Notes: a model not told the origin generated them from the sequence alone. A DNA stretch of 64,000 nt from Minisyncoccota bacterium (GCA_016211945.1 JACRHV010000004.1:263472-327471); one strand, 5' to 3'. Shown: positions 14,376-22,910, counted from the stretch's first letter. Translations and numbers: made by a program.

Positions 14376-15043
14376 GGTGTTATCATACGAGCAGTGCTAT
14401 GCAACCGCAATCTTCTCTTCGTCATACATTAGAAATCTTACAAAAAACATACATCTCCCACCCCATGCATGAGGCGTTTCACCACGATCCATTTCAGATG
14501 CTCGTGGCAGTGATTTTGTCCCAACGCGCCACCGATGCAATGACTATTTCCGTTGCCCAAAAATTGTTTGAAGTTACGCCGACACCACAGGCTATTACTG
14601 CCCTCAATATGCAAGTCTTAGAAAAGATTATTCGCCCTATCGGCTTCTTTCACACAAAGGCTCTTGCGTTACAAAAACTATCACGCGTACTCATCGAAAC
14701 ATTTGACGGCAAAGTTCCAACCACAGAATCTGAGTTACTTTCTCTCCCGCAAGTCGGCAGAAAAACCGCGAACATCATGCTGACCTTATTCTTTCACACT
14801 CCACAGATTGCGGTCGATGTCCATGTGCATCGCATCACAAACCGGCTTGGATGGGTCAACACAAAAACAGTTGAGGAAACCGAACTTTCGCTTACAAAAA
14901 TAATTCCAAAAGATTTGATTTATGATGTGAATCGAGTGTTTGTCCGCCATGGACAAGAAATATGTAGACCAATAAGTCCGAAATGTTCAATTTGTCCTGT
15001 GCAAAAATATTGCAAGAAAGTTGGGGTCACACAGTCAAGGTAA
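14354..15043 (+). CDS. nth: endonuclease III (HhH-GPD DNA glycosylase with 4Fe-4S cluster)
   Basis: HhH segment LPQVGRKTANIM and C-terminal CRPISPKCSICPVQKYC iron-sulfur motif. Confidence 0.85.
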   Translation: MQSIISSWCYHTSSAMQPQSSLRHTLEILQKTYISHPMHEAFHHDPFQMLVAVILSQRATDAMTISVAQKLFEVTPTPQAITALNMQVLEKIIRPIGFFHTKALALQKLSRVLIETFDGKVPTTESELLSLPQVGRKTANIMLTLFFHTPQIAVDVHVHRITNRLGWVNTKTVEETELSLTKIIPKDLIYDVNRVFVRHGQEICRPISPKCSICPVQKYCKKVGVTQSR

Positions 15044-15082
15044 AAAGCGGATATAAAGGTGTATACTGTAAAAAAGGAGGAG

Positions 15083-15339
15083 AAGTGGGAGGACTTAATG
15101 CGCTTAAGACTGGGGAAGTAGATGGATATCACGTGCGTTACGTTGCCCACAGTACAGATGGTCGAAGTGAGGAAGATGTTCATGCAGAATGTCGTGCTAT
15201 TTTAGAAAAGATTTCTCAATCAATGGCAACCGGGGAACTTATTCTTATGAGAAACGGAAATTCTTCTCAGGAACTTGTACACAAAAGTCATGTGGGCGAT
15301 CGTATCCAAAAAGGATGGGTTGTTGTTTCATTGAGGTAA
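15083..15339 (+). CDS. small hypothetical protein (about 85 aa, GTG start)
   Basis: AAGGAGGAGAA 3 nt upstream of the GTG at 15083 (an ATG at 15096 is also possible). In frame with track ORF 14983..15339. No family recognised. Confidence 0.3.
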
Positions 15340-15390: not shown

Positions 15391-16323
15391 ATGAACATTT
15401 CCTGTTCGTTCAAAGTTGCGATCGTTGGTCTTGGGAAGGTTGGGATGTCGGCGGCCTACGCAATGATGCTCGAAGGCACACCAACCGATATTATTCTCCT
15501 TGCACGTGATAAAGAGAAAGCGATTGGGGAAAAACTTGACCTCGAGCATGCACTTCCGTTTTTAGATTTTGTGAATATTATTGCAACAGATGATTATGCC
15601 GATCTCGCGGGTACCCATCTCGTGATTGTTACTGCGGGCGCCGCGCAAAAGCCTGGGGAAACTCGATTGGATTTGTGTGCAAATAACCGCGCCATCATGG
15701 CAGAGATCTTACCTAAAATTAACGCAGCTGCACCGGATGCAATTATCCTTATGATTGCAAATCCCGTCGATGTGTTGGTGCAGTTTGCCAACAGTATTTT
15801 GCCAAATGCAAAAGGTCGAATCTTTGGATCCGGCACCATGCTCGATACCGCTCGATTCCGTTTCCATCTTGCAGAAACGCTCCATGTGAATCCGAGAAGT
15901 GTCCATGCATACGTTTTGGGTGAACACGGCGACAGTTCTTTCCCCGTCTATGCAAATGCAACAGTTGGCGGACAAAAACTCATGGAGTTCCCCGGTATGA
16001 GCGCAGAAATTATTCAAGATGCGTACAAGAAAGCGCGCGAAGCCGCATATAACATTATCAAAGCAAAAGGTGCAACGTACTACGCGATCGGTGTGGTAGC
16101 AACCAAGATTATGGAGGCAGTGTTCTCTGATGCAAAAACTGTTCTCCCACTTTCTGTTCCACTGGATAATTACTATGGCCTTTCTGGAGTTTCATTGAGT
16201 GTTCCATGTATTTTGGGCGCGCGTGGCATTGAACAAGTGCTTCACCTTGATCTTTCACAAGAAGAGCAGGCAAATTTGAAAAAGTCAGCAGAAACACTTG
16301 CGCAATACAATAAAGAGTTATGA
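15391..16323 (+). CDS. ldh: L-lactate dehydrogenase
   Basis: KVAIVGLGKVGMSAAYAM Rossmann segment, AGAAQKPGETRLDL, IANPVDVL, GSGTMLDTARFRF, VLGEHGDS. Start placed at the ATG at 15391 rather than the upstream TTG. The stop overlaps the next gene (ATGA). Confidence 0.85.
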   Translation: MNISCSFKVAIVGLGKVGMSAAYAMMLEGTPTDIILLARDKEKAIGEKLDLEHALPFLDFVNIIATDDYADLAGTHLVIVTAGAAQKPGETRLDLCANNRAIMAEILPKINAAAPDAIILMIANPVDVLVQFANSILPNAKGRIFGSGTMLDTARFRFHLAETLHVNPRSVHAYVLGEHGDSSFPVYANATVGGQKLMEFPGMSAEIIQDAYKKAREAAYNIIKAKGATYYAIGVVATKIMEAVFSDAKTVLPLSVPLDNYYGLSGVSLSVPCILGARGIEQVLHLDLSQEEQANLKKSAETLAQYNKEL

Positions 16324-17168
16324 ACATTCTCAAAGCAAACGGACAACTCGAGCCTTTTGACGAACACAAGTTCCGCCGATCCTTACGACATGCACACATC
16401 TCAAAAGAGTTCCACGATCAAGTTGTTACATCAGTAACACAGTCACTCTATGAAGGTATTCCGACGCGTGAAATTTACAAACATGTGTATGACTTTTTAA
16501 ACGGAAATTTTCCCATGGGCTCTTGTACATATAATCTTAAGCAGGCGATTATGGAGCTTGGCCCCAGTGGGTATCCATTTGAACGATACGTTGGGAAGTT
16601 ACTGGAGCGGCAGGGATATCAAGTACGGGTTGGGCAGATGATTCGAGGAACATGTGTTGCACACGAGATTGACGTCCTCGCAGAAAAAGACCACGAGCAT
16701 TTTATGGTTGAGTGCAAGTTCCACAACGAACGTGGATTAAAATCTGATGTAAAGGTTGCGCTCTATGTATGGGCGCGATATCAAGATATTTTACAATCTT
16801 GGCTTGCCAAGGAGCCGGAGGAAGAAAAAGAAAAGTTGCACCAAGCTTGGCTGGTAACCAACACAAAGTTCAGCGAGGATGCGCTCCAGTACGGCCAATG
16901 CGTTGGGATGAAGATGGTGGGATGGAGCTATCCAGAAAAGGGAAATTTGCAGGAGTTGATTGAAAAGACCTGCCTTCATCCTATTACGAGTTTATCTTCT
17001 TTGGGTACTTCGCAAAAACAATATCTGTTGTCGCAAGACGTGGTGATTGCGACTGATCTGGAAACACGACAGGACGTTGTGGAAAATCTTCACTTGCCTT
17101 CTGAAACATTGACAGCATTACACAAAGAGCTTGAGATGTTAAAAACGTGTGTGTTGAGGGAAGAATAA
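16320..17168 (+). CDS. ATP-cone domain fused to an Mrr-like PD-(D/E)xK restriction-endonuclease-fold domain
   Basis: N-terminal ILKANGQLEPFDEHKFRRSL...TREIYKHVYDFL matches an ATP-cone. The following region has D...E.K catalytic-like residues (HEIDVLAEKD...FMVECKF). Translationally coupled to ldh. Confidence 0.55.
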   Translation: MNILKANGQLEPFDEHKFRRSLRHAHISKEFHDQVVTSVTQSLYEGIPTREIYKHVYDFLNGNFPMGSCTYNLKQAIMELGPSGYPFERYVGKLLERQGYQVRVGQMIRGTCVAHEIDVLAEKDHEHFMVECKFHNERGLKSDVKVALYVWARYQDILQSWLAKEPEEEKEKLHQAWLVTNTKFSEDALQYGQCVGMKMVGWSYPEKGNLQELIEKTCLHPITSLSSLGTSQKQYLLSQDVVIATDLETRQDVVENLHLPSETLTALHKELEMLKTCVLREE

Positions 17169-17195
17169 GAGAGGTAACTGCTTACCCTACCTCTG
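17166..17195. terminator. Inverted repeat between convergent genes (weak, factor-independent terminator candidate)
   Basis: GAGGTAACTGCTTACCCTACCTC (GAGGTA/TACCTC arms) lies between the stop at 17168 (+) and the stop at 17187 (-). No strong T-run follows. Confidence 0.3.
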
Positions 17196-17420
17196 TCCAC
17201 TCTCGGCGGCCGCTCTAGTTCTTTGTACTTCAGCCAACATTTCTGCAGCTTCTTTAGGATGTATGTCTGCATAAATAGCCCACGCTTCTCGTTTGGTTAT
17301 TGTCTTACCACTCGCAATGATAGGAAAAGCTACTGACTCTATAGCTTTTTGGAAGGAAGATTTTGGAAATTCAAGTTTTCCCCCGTTTCTTCTTGCTTCG
17401 TGAGTTGGACAAAGTGACAT
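17187..17420 (-). CDS. small hypothetical protein (77 aa)
   Basis: ORF-track entry; start preceded by GGGAGGAAAT. Last gene of a co-directional trio with the two genes upstream. Confidence 0.35.
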   Translation of the reverse strand: MSLCPTHEARRNGGKLEFPKSSFQKAIESVAFPIIASGKTITKREAWAIYADIHPKEAAEMLAEVQRTRAAAESGQR

Positions 17421-17432
17421 ATTTCCTCCCGG

Positions 17433-17660
17433 TTATTTTTTTTCTTGCTGATTCGATCGAATAAATACTTCATATGCTGCGGCAACCACAGAATTTTCTG
17501 CCTTGAATTTTTCATATGCTGCTTGTCGTGTAATTCCTTCTGCCGTTGCTTGTGTTTGTATTTGCTCCGTAAGACTCTGAAAAAAAGCATAGGTCATTGG
17601 ACCTTCTCCATTTATCAAATTTATGTGCGTTCCACCTGGTAGTATGTTCCCTGTCCCCAT
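17433..17660 (-). CDS. small hypothetical protein (75 aa)
   Basis: ORF-track entry, 12 nt upstream of the 77-aa ORF. No family recognised. Confidence 0.35.
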   Translation of the reverse strand: MGTGNILPGGTHINLINGEGPMTYAFFQSLTEQIQTQATAEGITRQAAYEKFKAENSVVAAAYEVFIRSNQQEKK

Positions 17661-17701
17661 ATATCCCTCCTTTTCGTATTATTATATACCCACCTTCAAT
17701 C

Positions 17702-18616
17702 CTATACCTTCATTTTTGCCGAATACACCAAGAAATCTTCTCCTCCTAAGTCGTATTTATACCGCTCATTCCCTTGTAAAAAGTTATACTCGCGAAATTC
17801 ATGTTCTATTGCATATTTAATACCTGAAGCCTTTGTGTAAAATCCCACATTTGGATATTTTGCAACATTAACTCCGGAATTGTAGAGGAGAACCGCATCG
17901 CCCACCTCAAAAGATAATGTTGCCGACACATGTTTTCCATCAATCACACAGAATAATAGTTGAACTTCTTTTGAAAAAACGTGTGCGAGTTTGGTAAAAA
18001 ACTTTCGCATGTCTTCGGTGAGAAACATGCGCTTCTTCTCATCCCCTTGCATGAGATGTAAAAACTCTGCTATATCATGCTCCGGCTTCTCGCTTCTTTC
18101 CAGATGGATTCCTGGATATTTTTCTTCGATATTACGCATCTTTCTTCGCAACTCGTGTCTTTTGTGTTTGTCCAGCGATTCGACGTATGCATCCCAACTT
18201 GTTGGTAATTGTACGATTGGTGTCGTGTCCTCTCGAACCATATCCTTCTGAAAAAAGTGGAAGGTTGGGGATGATGCTGGAACATTTCTTAACTCGATCC
18301 TATACCCATGCTGTGAACAAAACGTAAGAATTTCTTCCCACGCCTCATGCTTTTTTGCTGGATCGCCAATGATATCCATATAATCCGAAATCTCAACTCC
18401 GCCGGAAAACATCACGCTGTAACCTTTTTTCACAAATGGGGCAATAATGTTGCCATCAATATTCAAATACAACGGCTCATACTCTGCACCAAAGACCTCA
18501 AACCACGTGGTGTGCCAAACATGTGTACTGAACGGGGACCATAGATCATTTTTTGCAGAACACACCTCCCAAATTTCTTTTGTTTTTGTATCAGAGAGCG
18601 AACAGACAGAAATCAT
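17702..18616 (-). CDS. FemAB/CelD-like GNAT-fold acyltransferase
   Basis: About 300 aa with the alternating pattern typical of FemAB-like (Acetyltransf_6) proteins (…FLQGNERYKYDLGGEDFLVYSAKM). The start is uncertain (TTG at 18646 or ATG at 18616). Confidence 0.45.
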   Translation of the reverse strand: MISVCSLSDTKTKEIWEVCSAKNDLWSPFSTHVWHTTWFEVFGAEYEPLYLNIDGNIIAPFVKKGYSVMFSGGVEISDYMDIIGDPAKKHEAWEEILTFCSQHGYRIELRNVPASSPTFHFFQKDMVREDTTPIVQLPTSWDAYVESLDKHKRHELRRKMRNIEEKYPGIHLERSEKPEHDIAEFLHLMQGDEKKRMFLTEDMRKFFTKLAHVFSKEVQLLFCVIDGKHVSATLSFEVGDAVLLYNSGVNVAKYPNVGFYTKASGIKYAIEHEFREYNFLQGNERYKYDLGGEDFLVYSAKMKV

Positions 18617-18632
18617 GGTATAAGTATACTCG

Positions 18633-18971
18633 ATGACACCGCACAAAATTCACGTGTTATTTGTCTGTTCCAAAAATCAATGGAGAAGTCCAACGGCTGA
18701 ACGTATTTTTTCTCACCATCCAAAGCTACTCGTACGATCGGCCGGAACGCGTGCTTCTGCGAAGCACCAAGTTTCGCTCAAAGATATTGAGTGGGCAGAC
18801 ATTATTTTTTGTATGGAGAATACGCAGAAAGATATGATCAAACAACGCTTTTCAAACATAAAACTCTCACCCCTGCATGTTCTCGATATCGAGGACCATT
18901 ACCATTTTATGGATCCGGAACTTGTCCATCTTCTCCAAATTTCCCTAGAAAAATTTCTTCCTTCTTTATAG
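18633..18971 (+). CDS. low-molecular-weight phosphatase family protein (LMW-PTP/ArsC-like)
   Basis: N-terminal VLFVCSKNQWRSPTAE contains the C-X5-R-S P-loop of LMW phosphotyrosine phosphatases/arsenate reductases. At 112 aa it is shorter than canonical LMW-PTPs. Confidence 0.55.
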   Translation: MTPHKIHVLFVCSKNQWRSPTAERIFSHHPKLLVRSAGTRASAKHQVSLKDIEWADIIFCMENTQKDMIKQRFSNIKLSPLHVLDIEDHYHFMDPELVHLLQISLEKFLPSL

Positions 18972-19038: not shown

Positions 19039-19722
19039 ATGATCGTCATACGAAAATTACTTGAGTTTTTTGCCACACTTCTCATACTGTGTTGCAGATT
19101 TGTCGGTTACGTATACACACAGGGGTGGTCATTTTTCCACGTGTCTTGGTACGATCATCGGTTTGATTTTTTGAGAGGACCGAGTAATTGGTACTGGACA
19201 GAACGGGGTGTGCTTGGAAATTATCATATCCCTTTTGATGGCGAGGTTCTCGATCTTTGTTGTGGTGATGGAACATTTTCTGGGTTGTTCTACAGTACAC
19301 GGGCAAAGCATGTTGATGCTCTCGACATTGATCCCGAGGCAATACAGACCGCAAAGTCCGTGTATGCAAAACCAAACGTTTCATACCAAGTTCAAGATGT
19401 TTTGCGCGGATCGTACCCCAAGAAATTCTACGACACCATTCTCCTCTTTGTTGCAATTGAACACTTCTCTGTTGAGCATGGGAGAGACTTGCTGAAAAAG
19501 ATAGGGGCTCATTTGCAAAATGATCAAAGCACATTTATTGGTTCAACTGTTCTTTTTGAAAAAAGAGGCGGACATAATTTTGAACACGACAACGAGTTTT
19601 TGTCTGAGAAACAAGTGAAAGATTTTCTTACACCATACTTCAAAGAAGTGAGGTTGTGGATTTCTTCATGGCCAAAAGGAAGACAGGAATGTTATTTTGT
19701 GTGTAGGGGAGCGAAAAAATAG
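19039..19722 (+). CDS. class I SAM-dependent methyltransferase
   Basis: Motif I-like VLDLCCGDGTFSG and an acidic motif II (HVDALDIDPEAI). Confidence 0.6.
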   Translation: MIVIRKLLEFFATLLILCCRFVGYVYTQGWSFFHVSWYDHRFDFLRGPSNWYWTERGVLGNYHIPFDGEVLDLCCGDGTFSGLFYSTRAKHVDALDIDPEAIQTAKSVYAKPNVSYQVQDVLRGSYPKKFYDTILLFVAIEHFSVEHGRDLLKKIGAHLQNDQSTFIGSTVLFEKRGGHNFEHDNEFLSEKQVKDFLTPYFKEVRLWISSWPKGRQECYFVCRGAKK

Positions 19723-19772: not shown

Positions 19773-20798
19773 ATGGATAAAAATGAGATCGACAAAATGA
19801 ATCCTGGCGCTCCAGGAATACAAAAACTTCTGGCAATACTAAACAAAGAAATAGCGCTACCAAAGGGTAGAATTCTTACATTCCATGCAGGTGAAAATAT
19901 GGACGATCTTTCTGTTTACAATCCATCCCCCATTGAGGTTGATGGAGAAACATTTCTATTGGCTCGTGTCGAAAAGAAAAGCTCTGAAAATGGATCCATC
20001 GTTTTGCTTTTTGCGAAAAATGAATACGATGAGTGGTACGTTGTTGAAGATGTACCGGCTCTACATAACATACAAGATCCCTTTTACTGCGGAGTCATTG
20101 ATGGCCTTCATGTTATTGGTTGGGTACAAACACACGAAGAGGTTGGATTCTCTCATTTAGCCTACAGAACTGTTTTTTACCGATTCGAAAATTCTATTTC
20201 TGAACTCAATGATGAGGCTTCTCATTCAATACCTCCTTTTGTAGTCGGTCCGGAGAATATGAAAGGTATTAGGCTCATTCAAAGAGCAAATGGTCGAATT
20301 GGAGTATTCACTAGACCCCAAGGAACATTTGGTGGACGAGGAAAAGTTGGTTATTTTGAGATTGAGAATCTTGACCAATTAGAAAAAAGTCTCGTAGAGT
20401 ATGTCAAGATTGCAGATCCTCATACCCTCATCGCTAATCTATTTATGGAGCGGCCTAAAGGCGAAGATGAGTGGGGTGGCGTCAACGAACTACGAAATAG
20501 GCCTGATGGGAGAATTAATGTTTTGGGACATATCGCCGATTTTGAACCTTATGGTATTAAAAAAAGCTACTATCCCATCACATTTATTTTTGATCCGGAA
20601 ACTGGATCGATATGTGATTTAAAAATAATTACCACCGCAGGACAGTTTCCTCTGGTTGAAACAAAAAAACCTGACTTGGGAGAAGTTTTATATAGCGGTG
20701 GGTTGGTATATTTGGGTAATGGTAAGGTTCGCCTCTATGTAGGAATTGGAGACATAGAAACAGGTTCTATAGACATAGAAGATCCCTTTTTGAAATAA
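19773..20798 (+). CDS. hypothetical protein, predicted beta-propeller (DUF1861/GH43-GH130-like fold)
   Basis: 341 aa with repeated blade-like segments (YNPSPIEVDGETFLLARV, DPFYCGVIDGLHVIGWV, GRIGVFTRPQG, GRINVLGHIADF). Assignment by resemblance only. Confidence 0.3.
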   Translation: MDKNEIDKMNPGAPGIQKLLAILNKEIALPKGRILTFHAGENMDDLSVYNPSPIEVDGETFLLARVEKKSSENGSIVLLFAKNEYDEWYVVEDVPALHNIQDPFYCGVIDGLHVIGWVQTHEEVGFSHLAYRTVFYRFENSISELNDEASHSIPPFVVGPENMKGIRLIQRANGRIGVFTRPQGTFGGRGKVGYFEIENLDQLEKSLVEYVKIADPHTLIANLFMERPKGEDEWGGVNELRNRPDGRINVLGHIADFEPYGIKKSYYPITFIFDPETGSICDLKIITTAGQFPLVETKKPDLGEVLYSGGLVYLGNGKVRLYVGIGDIETGSIDIEDPFLK

Positions 20799-20904
20799 AG
20801 AGAAACATCTTCTTCTGTAGCGGATTGCATCAATCGTCTCATAATGAGATAATTGAACATATAAATGAGATGAAAGGAGGCCTTCCAAAGGTTGTAGATA
20901 TTTG

Positions 20905-21075
20905 AGCGTGTGGCCCAACATCTGTTGGGATACGAGGAATGGGTCTTTTACTCTGTAAAAGAAATCGGGCTTTTCTTTAATGAAAAGTATCTGCGGACAC
21001 CCATCGGTTGCTACAGTCGTAAGTTTTGTTTTAAATCTTTTCCGTAAGGAAAAGGACAGAGAACAGAAACACGTA
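20905..21075 (+). ncRNA. Putative glmS ribozyme (GlcN6P-responsive) in the glmS 5' UTR
   Basis: Begins AGCGUG. Conserved core ...GGGAUACGAGGAAUGGGUC (ACGAGGA as in UUGACGAGGA). GCGGACACCCAUCGG corresponds to GGCGGAUGCCUCCCGG, with AUGGGU/ACCCAU replacing GGAGG/CCUCC as a compensatory pair. ACAGUCGUAAG matches ACAGCCGUAAG. It lies 70 nt upstream of the glmS start. Confidence 0.6.
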
Positions 21076-21143
21076 GCCAAACCTTTATTCTTCATTTTTT
21101 TTCTTTTCTTTAACAGTGTTGAGCATTTTCACAAGGAGGTACT

Positions 21144-22910
21144 ATGTGTGGAGTTTTTGGATACATTGGTCATCGATCTAACGCAGCGTTATTGGTGTTT
21201 GAAGGATTAAAACGGTTGGAGTATCGCGGATATGATAGCTGGGGAGTTGTGGTTGTTGGTCGTGGAAAAATTTACGTGAAAAAGAAAACGGGGAAAATAG
21301 GTGGGGCAACAGTTGATGAGCTTCCACCTGGATCATTGGCAATCGGGCACACTCGATGGGCGACGCACGGCGGTGTGACGGAAAAAAACGCGCACCCACA
21401 CCTTGACTGTACACACACCATCGCAGTGATTCATAACGGCATTGTGGAAAATTACGAAAGCATACAAGCAGAATTGGTACACGCCGGACATCGTTTTGTG
21501 TCAGAAACTGATACCGAAATTATTGCTCATTTGTTGGAGTTTTATGCGCATAACATGTCATTTATTGAAGCGTTTGTGAAAACATTTCAGCGATTGGAGG
21601 GGCTCAATGCTATTGTAGCGATACATCATAAAGAAAGAGTTCTCGTCGCTGCAAAAAAGGGTTCTCCTCTTGTCATTGGTTTTGGAAAAAAAGAAAACTT
21701 TATTGCAAGTGATCCTTCCGCGCTTTTACCACATACAAAGGAAGTGTACTTTCTTGAGGATGGGCAGATGGCAGTTCTCCGTGATGCATCTGTTTCAGTG
21801 ATGGAGAGTGCGTCACAAAAGGTTGTGAAGTTTTCTACGCAAATTTTGGACTGGGATGTTTCTCAAACTCATAAAGGTGAGTTCCACCATTTCATGCTGA
21901 AAGAAATATATGAACAACCTCAAGTTGTTTTGGGTATTGCAGGAAGTGGAGGTGAGGAGGTTAAAAGGATTGTATCTTTGATACGGAAAACAAAAGATCT
22001 GTATTTTGTTGGATGCGGCTCAGCGTCTTACGCATGTTTAGCCGGAGCGTATCTTTTTTCAAAAATTGCTCAGAGGCGGGCGCATGCGATTGCTGGGAGT
22101 GAGTTTTTGTATCACCTGGATTTTATCAATACAAAAAGTGTTGTGGTGGCTTTATCCCAATCTGGAGAAACCATTGACACCTTAGAGTCTGTGTCTTATG
22201 CAAAAAGAAAGGGCGCGAAGATTGTGGCTTTGGTTAATGTCCTCGGATCCTCTCTGTATCGAGTAGCAGACGCGAAGATTTTGATAGGCGCTGGACCAGA
22301 AAAAGCGGTTGCATCAACAAAAGCTTTTATTGGCAAAATCGCGCATCTTATTTTGTTGGCGTACGCATTGGATAAACGAGTGAAGGAGGGGCAGGAATTG
22401 TTGCGTAAGTCCGCGGAGGTTATACGAGAGGTGTTGGCGGAAAAAAACAGCGATCGAATAAAGAAATTGGCGCATCGTATTTGCGGAGTGAACCACATTT
22501 TTATTCTTGGCAGAGGTCTTTCATATTCTGCAAGTTTAGAGTGTGCGATGAAGATCAAGGAAATCAGTTATATTCATGCCGAGGGTTTGGCGGCTGGAGA
22601 GCTGAAGCACGGCACCCTCGCCTTGGTTGAAAAGGGGACTCCGTGTATTGTCCTTCTCCCCAACGATGAGACGTATGCCGCAACATTGGCGGGAGCTATG
22701 GAGATCAAAGCGCGAGGCGGATATATCATTGGAATTTCACCAAAAAAAGAAGGTGTTTTTGATGAGTATTTGCCTATTGCCGATGTTGGAGATGCCAGCA
22801 TGATCCCCATGGTTGTTACCGGTCAACTCCTCGCATATTATTTGGCACTGGAACGAGGTCTTGACCCGGATATGCCGAGGAATTTGGCAAAGAGTGTGAC
22901 GGTGAGGTAG
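21144..22910 (+). CDS. glmS: glutamine--fructose-6-phosphate aminotransferase
   Basis: N-terminal MCGVFGYIG (Ntn Cys2), two SIS domains, 588 aa; preceded by AAGGAGGTACT. Confidence 0.9.
   Translation: MCGVFGYIGHRSNAALLVFEGLKRLEYRGYDSWGVVVVGRGKIYVKKKTGKIGGATVDELPPGSLAIGHTRWATHGGVTEKNAHPHLDCTHTIAVIHNGIVENYESIQAELVHAGHRFVSETDTEIIAHLLEFYAHNMSFIEAFVKTFQRLEGLNAIVAIHHKERVLVAAKKGSPLVIGFGKKENFIASDPSALLPHTKEVYFLEDGQMAVLRDASVSVMESASQKVVKFSTQILDWDVSQTHKGEFHHFMLKEIYEQPQVVLGIAGSGGEEVKRIVSLIRKTKDLYFVGCGSASYACLAGAYLFSKIAQRRAHAIAGSEFLYHLDFINTKSVVVALSQSGETIDTLESVSYAKRKGAKIVALVNVLGSSLYRVADAKILIGAGPEKAVASTKAFIGKIAHLILLAYALDKRVKEGQELLRKSAEVIREVLAEKNSDRIKKLAHRICGVNHIFILGRGLSYSASLECAMKIKEISYIHAEGLAAGELKHGTLALVEKGTPCIVLLPNDETYAATLAGAMEIKARGGYIIGISPKKEGVFDEYLPIADVGDASMIPMVVTGQLLAYYLALERGLDPDMPRNLAKSVTVR

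Follow-up and report, generated by a model that had tools for sequence, protein, structure and literature searches.

An ATP-cone/PD-(D/E)xK nuclease gene overlapping ldh in a Minisyncoccota bacterium belongs to a widespread, uncharacterized protein family

This study concerns a gene for a 282-amino acid (aa) protein in which an ATP-cone is joined to a PD-(D/E)xK nuclease domain. It was found in a 64,000-nucleotide (nt) stretch of Minisyncoccota bacterium DNA, hereafter the window, in which all coordinates are counted. The gene lies directly downstream of ldh, the product of which scores 333 bits against the NCBIfam model TIGR01771 (L-LDH; cut-off 303.55); the mechanical open reading frame (ORF) of ldh begins at TTG 15355, as against the ATG of the gene call. 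The nuclease ATG shares four nucleotides with the ldh stop codon TGA (gagTTATGAac, in the context GAGTTATGAAC), and both genes run in the same direction as nth (EndoIII) and a small ORF. Across the window the GC content per kb ranges from 0.38 to 0.50, with a normal base composition at the nuclease locus. A scan for promoters and terminators around ldh and the nuclease gene gave counts no different from those in shuffled sequence, and no second copy of the nuclease gene is present within the 64 kb. The database entry identical to the 282-aa protein comes from a Candidatus Pacebacteria metagenome-assembled genome, where it is labeled "restriction endonuclease." The features of the locus are collected in Table 1.

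Table 1. Features at and around the nuclease locus, in window coordinates
Feature	Coordinates	Strand	Basis or remark
118-aa ORF between EndoIII and ldh	14983-15339	+	
ldh, L-lactate dehydrogenase	15391-16323	+	Pfam Ldh_1_N and Ldh_1_C; gene call from ATG at 15391
ATGA start/stop overlap, ldh/nuclease gene	16320-16323	+	read directly from sequence; translational coupling presumed
282-aa ATP-cone/PD-(D/E)xK/AF1548-like_C protein	16320-17168	+	ORF call, Pfam
ATP-cone domain, residues 1-80	16320-16559	+	Pfam, profile search
PD-(D/E)xK nuclease domain, residues 83-205	16566-16934	+	Pfam Mrr_cat
AF1548-like C-terminal helical domain, residues 206-276	16935-17147	+	PF22357
77-aa ORFan	17187-17420	-	convergent with nuclease gene; GGAGG Shine-Dalgarno
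75-aa ORFan	17433-17660	-	GGAGG Shine-Dalgarno
FemAB/CelD-like GNAT	17702-18646	-	Acetyltransf_6, E 2.6e-13
LMWPc-like 112-aa ORF	18633-18971	+	Pfam, CX5R loop present
Class I S-adenosylmethionine (SAM) methyltransferase (Methyltransf_25/23/11)	19039-19722	divergent from GNAT	Pfam
DUF1861	19773-20798	divergent from GNAT	Pfam, E 2e-70
glmS ribozyme/riboswitch	20894-21080	+	Rfam RF00234
glmS	21144-22910		

Both the fusion and its overlap with ldh had been proposed in an initial annotation of this DNA, and both are borne out: each of the two Pfam domains exceeds its gathering score, and the same four-nucleotide overlap occurs in a relative that is 87% identical. The Pfam ATP-cone (PF03477) matches residues 1-60 at 28 bits, barely above the gathering score of 25.8 (E 3.3e-6), and in the relative P0070 the match reaches 29.8 bits over profile positions 2-84 of 88. 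Mrr_cat (PF04471) covers residues 83-193 at 32 bits (gathering score 21; E 1.5e-7). The N-terminal domain has the beta-hairpin lid and four-helix cone fold of ATP-cones and the central domain a restriction-endonuclease-like fold; the AlphaFold model of the whole protein has a pLDDT of 89.8 and a pTM of 0.84. A third domain, AF1548-like_C (PF22357; approximately residues 206-276, and above threshold in P0070), had been overlooked in the initial annotation. We regard the architecture of three domains with an intact active site as practically certain.

A profile of residues 1-84 retrieved Escherichia coli NrdR as its top match (E 0.002), followed by the cones of ribonucleotide reductases (RNRs), and the cone is closest to those of NrdR both by sequence and by fold. 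A PHROGs search returned only a weak match, to an RNR cone. The best solved relative is AF1548 (PDB 1Y88; E 4.2e-32 over residues 89-226), after which come the PD-(D/E)xK enzymes NucS (11.4), AspBHI (11.4), Can2 (10.3), VC1899 (9.9), MspJI (9.7), and Card1 (8.5). When a profile of the C-terminal region was compared with the PDB its sole match was the C-terminus of 1Y88 (E 6.6e-12). The classification of this domain as a classical helix-hairpin-helix was therefore rejected and, since the profile finds AF1548 only, any DNA binding by it is presumed.

Residue conservation was counted in 147 representatives of 50%-identity clusters, which are 33-48% identical to the query. None of 25 relatives departs from the residues E88, D118, E131, and K133; among the cluster representatives D118 is found in all 147 and each of the other three in 146. 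They include the equivalents of D38, E51, and K53 of AF1548, which were predicted to be catalytic in the GOS paper (PMC1821046). The alignment thus gives no sign that the catalytic D/E/K residues have been lost. In the cone, K5, E11, P12, F13, and K17 align with Lys53, Glu59, Pro60, Phe61, and Lys65 of E. coli NrdR, residues which in a structural study of that protein cover or recognize the adenine (bioRxiv 10.1101/2025.03.28.645925). Of the 147 representatives, 144 retain K5 and K17 and 145 have Phe or Tyr at position 13, while Y71 and K74 are probably further nucleotide contacts. As both the cone contacts and the catalytic residues are nearly invariant, sensor and nuclease are each under strong purifying selection, and a nuclease gated by adenine nucleotides is plausible. 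This part of the initial annotation stands; its anti-phage framing found no support, as discussed below.

Three residues beyond the catalytic tetrad, R153, D156, and N181, do not vary in any of the 147 representatives, and the pair C112/C194 is kept in 140. These positions (encoded at 16653-16901 in the window) might serve as a disulfide or metal pair, in substrate binding, or in communication between cone and nuclease. An obligatory three-cysteine metal site (C112/C132/C194) was considered and rejected, C132 being present in just 102 of the 147.

Comparison with named systems helps to delimit the protein. AF1548 of Archaeoglobus fulgidus, a structural-genomics hypothetical protein, is homologous across both the nuclease and AF1548-like_C domains but has no ATP-cone, as judged from the match starting at residue 22 of the 199 in the 1Y88 chain; it also carries Q at the position of H115. 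In NrdR and the RNRs the output of the cone is a zinc-ribbon DNA binder or a reductase, whereas here it is a nuclease. The zinc ribbon of NrdR precedes its cone; the 282-aa protein begins with the cone at residue 1 and shows no zinc-ribbon sequence or Pfam match. The KRDG motif of the cone reads KA(N/S)G here and, similarly, KSND in E. coli NrdR. Mrr, a type IV restriction enzyme, shares the above-threshold Mrr_cat match but possesses an Mrr_N winged-helix domain, for which there is no match in the 282-aa protein, the N-terminus of which is the ATP-cone; moreover, the nuclease core of the latter is structurally nearer to AF1548, NucS, AspBHI, and Can2, and its context is not of the restriction type. 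Can2 and Card1 couple a CARF sensor to a nuclease in type III CRISPR systems. By contrast, the 282-aa protein lacks a CARF domain, a CRISPR context, and a source of cyclic oligoadenylate, and its genomic surroundings are metabolic or stress-related.

The protein has numerous relatives. A word-indexed protein search yielded more than 3000 matches at E <= 1e-3, and an exhaustive hidden Markov model search of 1.84 billion representatives returned 634 50%-identity clusters at E <= 1e-30, nearly all of which are 270-295 aa long and match from end to end. The family is uniform in length (median 281 aa), identity across phyla is 33-50%, with near-invariant motifs in all three domains, and relatives occur in the genomes of at least 591 species. 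Among the matches listed, the patescibacterial carriers comprise Pace-, Davies-, Gottesman-, Chisholm-, Yonath-, and Jorgensenbacteria as well as Saccharimonadia, and the others include many Bacteroidota, Balneolales, some Gammaproteobacteria, Parachlamydiales, Chlorobiota, and one Nitrososphaera archaeon. Only two of 72,556 plasmids (from Pontibacter and Criblamydia) possess a member, so that this is not a typical plasmid gene. Existing database labels read "ATP cone domain-containing protein" or "restriction endonuclease," and in the literature on ATP-cone nucleases and AF1548 the sole relevant item found was the prediction in the GOS paper (PMC1821046). The window gene is an ordinary member of a cataloged, uncharacterized family.

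To place the gene in its context, the window was compared with four relatives (87%, 67%, 66%, and 61% identical), which makes five Pacebacteria lineages. The nuclease gene follows ldh directly in each of them, with spacings of -4, -4, +7, +19, and +3 nt; the four-nucleotide overlap recurs in the 87% relative (L094), and L002, L004, and L095 have gaps of 3-19 nt. The conserved block consists of genes for SecD/F, DUF3048, DUF4446, peptidase M29, Ham1, EndoIII, a small ORF, LDH, and the nuclease. It is kept in the 61-67% relatives, while L094 spans only 3.2 kb and covers the ldh-nuclease part. A position fixed after ldh within a housekeeping block is largely what would be expected of a housekeeping gene, rather than of the link to defense raised in the initial annotation. 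The small 118-aa ORF between EndoIII and ldh has no family match in the window; it is 38% identical (E 4e-16) to its counterpart in the 87% relative, and its position is taken by small ORFs of 83-93 aa in L002 and L095.

The neighbors of the wider family were surveyed by calling ORFs in 87 loci, clustering the proteins, and naming the representatives with Pfam and NCBIfam; unless otherwise indicated the counts refer to 79 non-redundant loci from different species (83 before de-duplication). At least one recurrent partner related to metals, nucleotides, energy, or universal stress proteins (USPs) is present in 58 of the 79. Metal-homeostasis genes (P-type ATPases, CusA, multicopper oxidase, CsoR, ArsR, YHS) are found in 44 loci, a gene of the nucleotide cassette described below in 27, energy genes in 21, and USPs in 12. 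The energy genes are those for the type II glyceraldehyde-3-phosphate dehydrogenase (GAPDH) equivalog, D-2-hydroxyacid dehydrogenase, L-LDH, phosphoenolpyruvate synthase, and PPK2, of which type II GAPDH occurs in nine loci, D-2-hydroxyacid dehydrogenase in seven, and PPK2 in six. A P-type ATPase is encoded in 41 of the 83 loci before de-duplication, and by motif these enzymes are of the CPH (21 loci), PEGL (12), and CPC (2) types.

Close operonic linkage is seen with a nucleotide cassette. In 18 loci a beta-CASP/RMMBL hydrolase gene lies immediately downstream of the nuclease gene on the same strand (gaps of -59 to +81 nt), and it is usually followed by a gene of the thymidine/AMP-phosphorylase family (TP-family) and then by one for a protein resembling phosphoribosyl pyrophosphate (PRPP) synthetase (PRPPS-like). 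Overall, beta-CASP genes were counted in 24 loci, and TP-family and PRPPS-like genes in 11 each. The four genes form an apparent operon, which recurs (L092, 1972-6597; L093, 12001-16608; and many of the loci L015-L082) in Bacteroidota and on the two plasmids, both of which carry precisely this cassette. The Pontibacter copy follows a 2-hydroxyacid dehydrogenase gene; in the Criblamydia cassette the gene boundaries overlap or abut, and the cassette lies amid genes for CusCBA, a P-type ATPase, phosphoketolase, glycogen phosphorylase (GlgP), and acetate kinase. In Nitrososphaera the nuclease gene directly follows that for AMP phosphorylase (TIGR03327; 595 bits against a cut-off of 535). With L-LDH upstream in Pacebacteria and D-2-hydroxyacid dehydrogenase in Bacteroidota, a lactate-type dehydrogenase directly precedes the nuclease in two non-homologous forms.

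Several of the cassette-associated enzymes are of archaeal type, namely the type II GAPDH equivalog, the aCPSF1-like beta-CASP hydrolase, and the archaeal-type phosphorylase. The small proteins DUF5676 (2TM), YHS, and SHOCT, together with a Lycopene_cyc-like membrane protein (PF18916) and an SRPBCC-like protein, also recur near family members (L006, L088, L090, and others). All of these belong to copper/metal-homeostasis clusters of both Patescibacteria and Balneolales, which suggests that the two groups share a stress island, possibly acquired by horizontal transfer.

Published data on the neighbor families are available from two proteobacteria. In Bradyrhizobium diazoefficiens, 0.5% O2 induces the adjacent genes bll3115 (metallo-beta-lactamase hydrolase), bll3116 (PRPP synthetase), and bll3117 (thymidine-phosphorylase family), with protein log2 fold changes of 2.9, 4.4, and 2.1 and mRNA fold changes of 15.4, 7.7, and 5.1, respectively; the co-induced proteins include USPs, phosphoketolase, CusA, and a copper P-type ATPase (PMC6515984). 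The low-oxygen-activated lxa locus of Burkholderia cenocepacia encodes a metal-dependent RNase, induced 30-fold, as well as USPs and a cation P-type ATPase, and deletion of the locus impairs the use of ribose, deoxyribose, thymidine, and nucleosides (PMC3721108). The family-level link between the ATP-cone nuclease, the beta-CASP/phosphorylase/PRPPS-like cassette, and lactate-type dehydrogenases appears, as far as our searches reveal, to be undescribed.

Downstream of the nuclease gene the window differs in character. The minus-strand unit of the GNAT gene and the two small ORFs, together with the genes divergent from it, lies exactly where the initial annotation had placed it. Against the FemAB_like model the GNAT scores 26.2 bits, slightly below the gathering score of 27; it is kept at 46% identity in one lineage (L002, L003), and L004 and L095 lack it. 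In L094 the counterpart of the 77-aa ORF is 58% identical, the flanking genes being 87-88% identical, and the place of the 75-aa ORF is there taken by an unrelated ORF of 66 aa. Neither small ORF produced anything but self-hits among 5.8 billion proteins, nor a Pfam or PHROG match. A toxin-antitoxin pair or other known family was rejected for them, as there is no family match, only self-hits, and no similarity between the two. The slot between nuclease and GNAT (17169-17700 in the window, 2534-3050 in L094) is hypervariable. The 77-aa ORF is real and fast-evolving and stands outside any system with the nuclease, as does the 75-aa ORF. Because the GNAT and the small ORFs change between relatives, this downstream side is a variable slot that forms no system with the nuclease, and among the relatives compared none of the GNAT, small ORF, phosphatase, methyltransferase, and DUF1861 genes is a conserved partner.

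The LMW-PTP-like protein (112 aa) matches only positions 1-46 of the 144 in its profile, including the CX5R motif VCSKNQWRS, and at its start its ORF overlaps with that of the divergent GNAT. Two readings fit this protein, a shortened variant of the phosphatase/ArsC-like kind or a fragment. Further downstream, the glmS ribozyme/riboswitch scores 56.9 bits (gathering score 37) over the full-length model and sits directly upstream of the glmS gene.

In ribonucleotide reductases and in NrdR the ATP-cone acts as an allosteric switch, whose nucleotide occupancy alters the oligomeric state. By analogy, the NrdR-type cone of the 282-aa protein would bind an adenine nucleotide, and its occupancy would alter the oligomeric state and so turn the nuclease on or off. 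The central PD-(D/E)xK domain, with its intact E-D-ExK metal site, would cleave nucleic acid as its presumed substrate, which the AF1548-like helical C-terminal domain probably helps to hold. Cleavage would then track the adenylate or dATP status of the cell, and nucleic-acid turnover or processing could be initiated under energy, low-oxygen, or metal stress. The four-gene cassette, with the nuclease first and distributed over many phyla, could channel nucleotides into ribose-phosphate and fermentation, in what would be a salvage role, and in this fermentative Pacebacterium the nuclease would be co-expressed and translationally coupled with L-lactate dehydrogenase. Given the associations with energy limitation, low oxygen, metal stress, and the nucleotide-phosphorolysis cassette, a nuclease gated by energy status and devoted to nucleic-acid turnover is the best specific model at hand. 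It is put forward tentatively, as a serious possibility to which we would not yet give even chances.

A larger version of this proposal is more speculative and, in our opinion, unlikely to hold in full. Here the nuclease, gated by energy charge, would be the point of entry to a module that is widespread, horizontally mobile, and built with archaeal-like components, by means of which cells under hypoxia or starvation, their ATP falling, might break down nucleic acids, whether their own or scavenged, into ribose-phosphate and ATP. Such a module would comprise the nuclease, the beta-CASP hydrolase, an enzyme of the nucleoside monophosphate/AMP-phosphorylase family, and a PRPP-synthetase-like protein, often with type II GAPDH, a lactate-type dehydrogenase, PPK2, USPs, and P-type ATPases. 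It is with the same reserve that the Pacebacteria gene could be seen as wired directly to lactate fermentation.

Several points weigh against an energy-gated turnover nuclease. The beta-CASP, TP-family, PRPPS-like, P-type ATPase, and other recurrent clusters are absent from the 64-kb window by tblastn, so that for this organism the salvage model is carried over from other phyla. The patescibacterial contexts are of diverse housekeeping kinds (for example MltG, MnmA, nuclease, MgtC, AlaRS), and the strongest statistical partner, metal efflux, is not explained by salvage. The neighbor counts derive from naive ORF calls and single-linkage clusters in the 80 loci most similar to the query, which are not phylogenetically independent. 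The Bradyrhizobium and Burkholderia data (PMC6515984, PMC3721108) bear on the neighbor families and not on the nuclease itself, and no functional study of, or biochemical data on, any family member was found in the literature.

The anti-phage role suggested in the initial annotation would make the protein an effector against phages or plasmids, the cone of which senses an infection-disturbed nucleotide pool and releases a non-specific nuclease, as abortive-infection systems do. Its sensor-plus-nuclease architecture does parallel that of Can2 and Card1, the family is patchily distributed over the phyla, two plasmids carry a member, and in one Balneola locus a type ISP/IIG restriction-modification gene lies approximately 3.5 kb away. 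Yet no PADLOC-DB 2.0 model matches the nuclease over its full length; the search produced only partial, weak matches to CARF_PDDEXK (E 2.9e-5, residues 83-139) and PDC-S02 (E 0.0027), and for six neighbors it revealed no defense match beyond a generic methyltransferase domain. No homologue was detected by tblastn in 50,697 phage records or by pattern scan in 2.9 million IMG/VR viral contigs. Neither a DNA methyltransferase nor a known defense gene recurs beside the nuclease in the 79 loci, and a test for restriction-modification found no recurrent methyltransferase cluster in 83; the nearest methyltransferase in the window is a generic class I SAM enzyme, absent from L002, L004, and L095. Pfam finds no CARF domain and the loci analyzed contain no CRISPR-related neighbor cluster. 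The uniform length, cross-phylum identity, and near-invariant motifs of the family are unlike those of fast-diversifying defense nucleases, and the fixed housekeeping position after ldh in relatives of 61-87% identity, the normal base composition, and the recurrent metal-efflux, low-oxygen, and energy genes all argue in the same direction. We therefore consider a defense effector quite improbable. A widespread, conserved family situated among fermentation, low-oxygen, and metal-stress genes is probably not concerned with phage defense, and a physiological role for the nuclease is the probable one.

Within physiology, the protein might instead be a repair or recombination nuclease, an endonuclease specific for certain structures or lesions (NucS, Hjc, or YraN-like) and licensed by ATP or dATP, which is grouped here with the nucleotide-pool and base-excision genes for Ham1 and EndoIII and elsewhere drawn to stress islands by DNA damage linked to metals or low oxygen. 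Both of those genes are close upstream and belong to the syntenic block retained in relatives, co-directional from nth onward; some members are labeled Holliday junction resolvase-like by JGI, and strong conservation with retention in reduced Patescibacteria genomes would fit core maintenance. We nevertheless judge this unlikely, for no repair genes recur beside the nuclease outside Pacebacteria, the genes tightly linked to it in operons encode beta-CASP hydrolase and nucleotide phosphorylases rather than recombination or repair functions, and the likeness to NucS and Hjc is confined to the generic PD-(D/E)xK core. The similarity of the cone to that of NrdR, and the frequent position of the gene at the head of long co-directional arrays (same-strand runs of at least five genes in 57 of the 79 loci), could alternatively point to an NrdR-like regulator, in which the nuclease fold and C-terminal domain mainly bind DNA and an ATP/dATP-loaded cone controls operator binding at adjacent operons. 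A tetrad so rarely altered argues for catalysis, however; the protein has neither the zinc ribbon of NrdR nor a helix-turn-helix domain, ArsR, CsoR, or two-component systems already adjoin the nuclease in many loci, and in the window the gene is the last one, after ldh, rather than leading or divergent. A regulator of this kind is accordingly very improbable.

For the window itself, these results mean that the gene is an ordinary member of its family and not a new defense system. A conserved family that uses an ATP-cone to control a nuclease would extend the switch of RNR and NrdR to the cleavage of nucleic acids. If the link to low oxygen and energy is true, it would provide an enzymatic function for a protein which is kept in many reduced Patescibacteria genomes, and a first step for a recurrent, uncharacterized four-gene cassette that is, in part, induced by microoxia in Bradyrhizobium.

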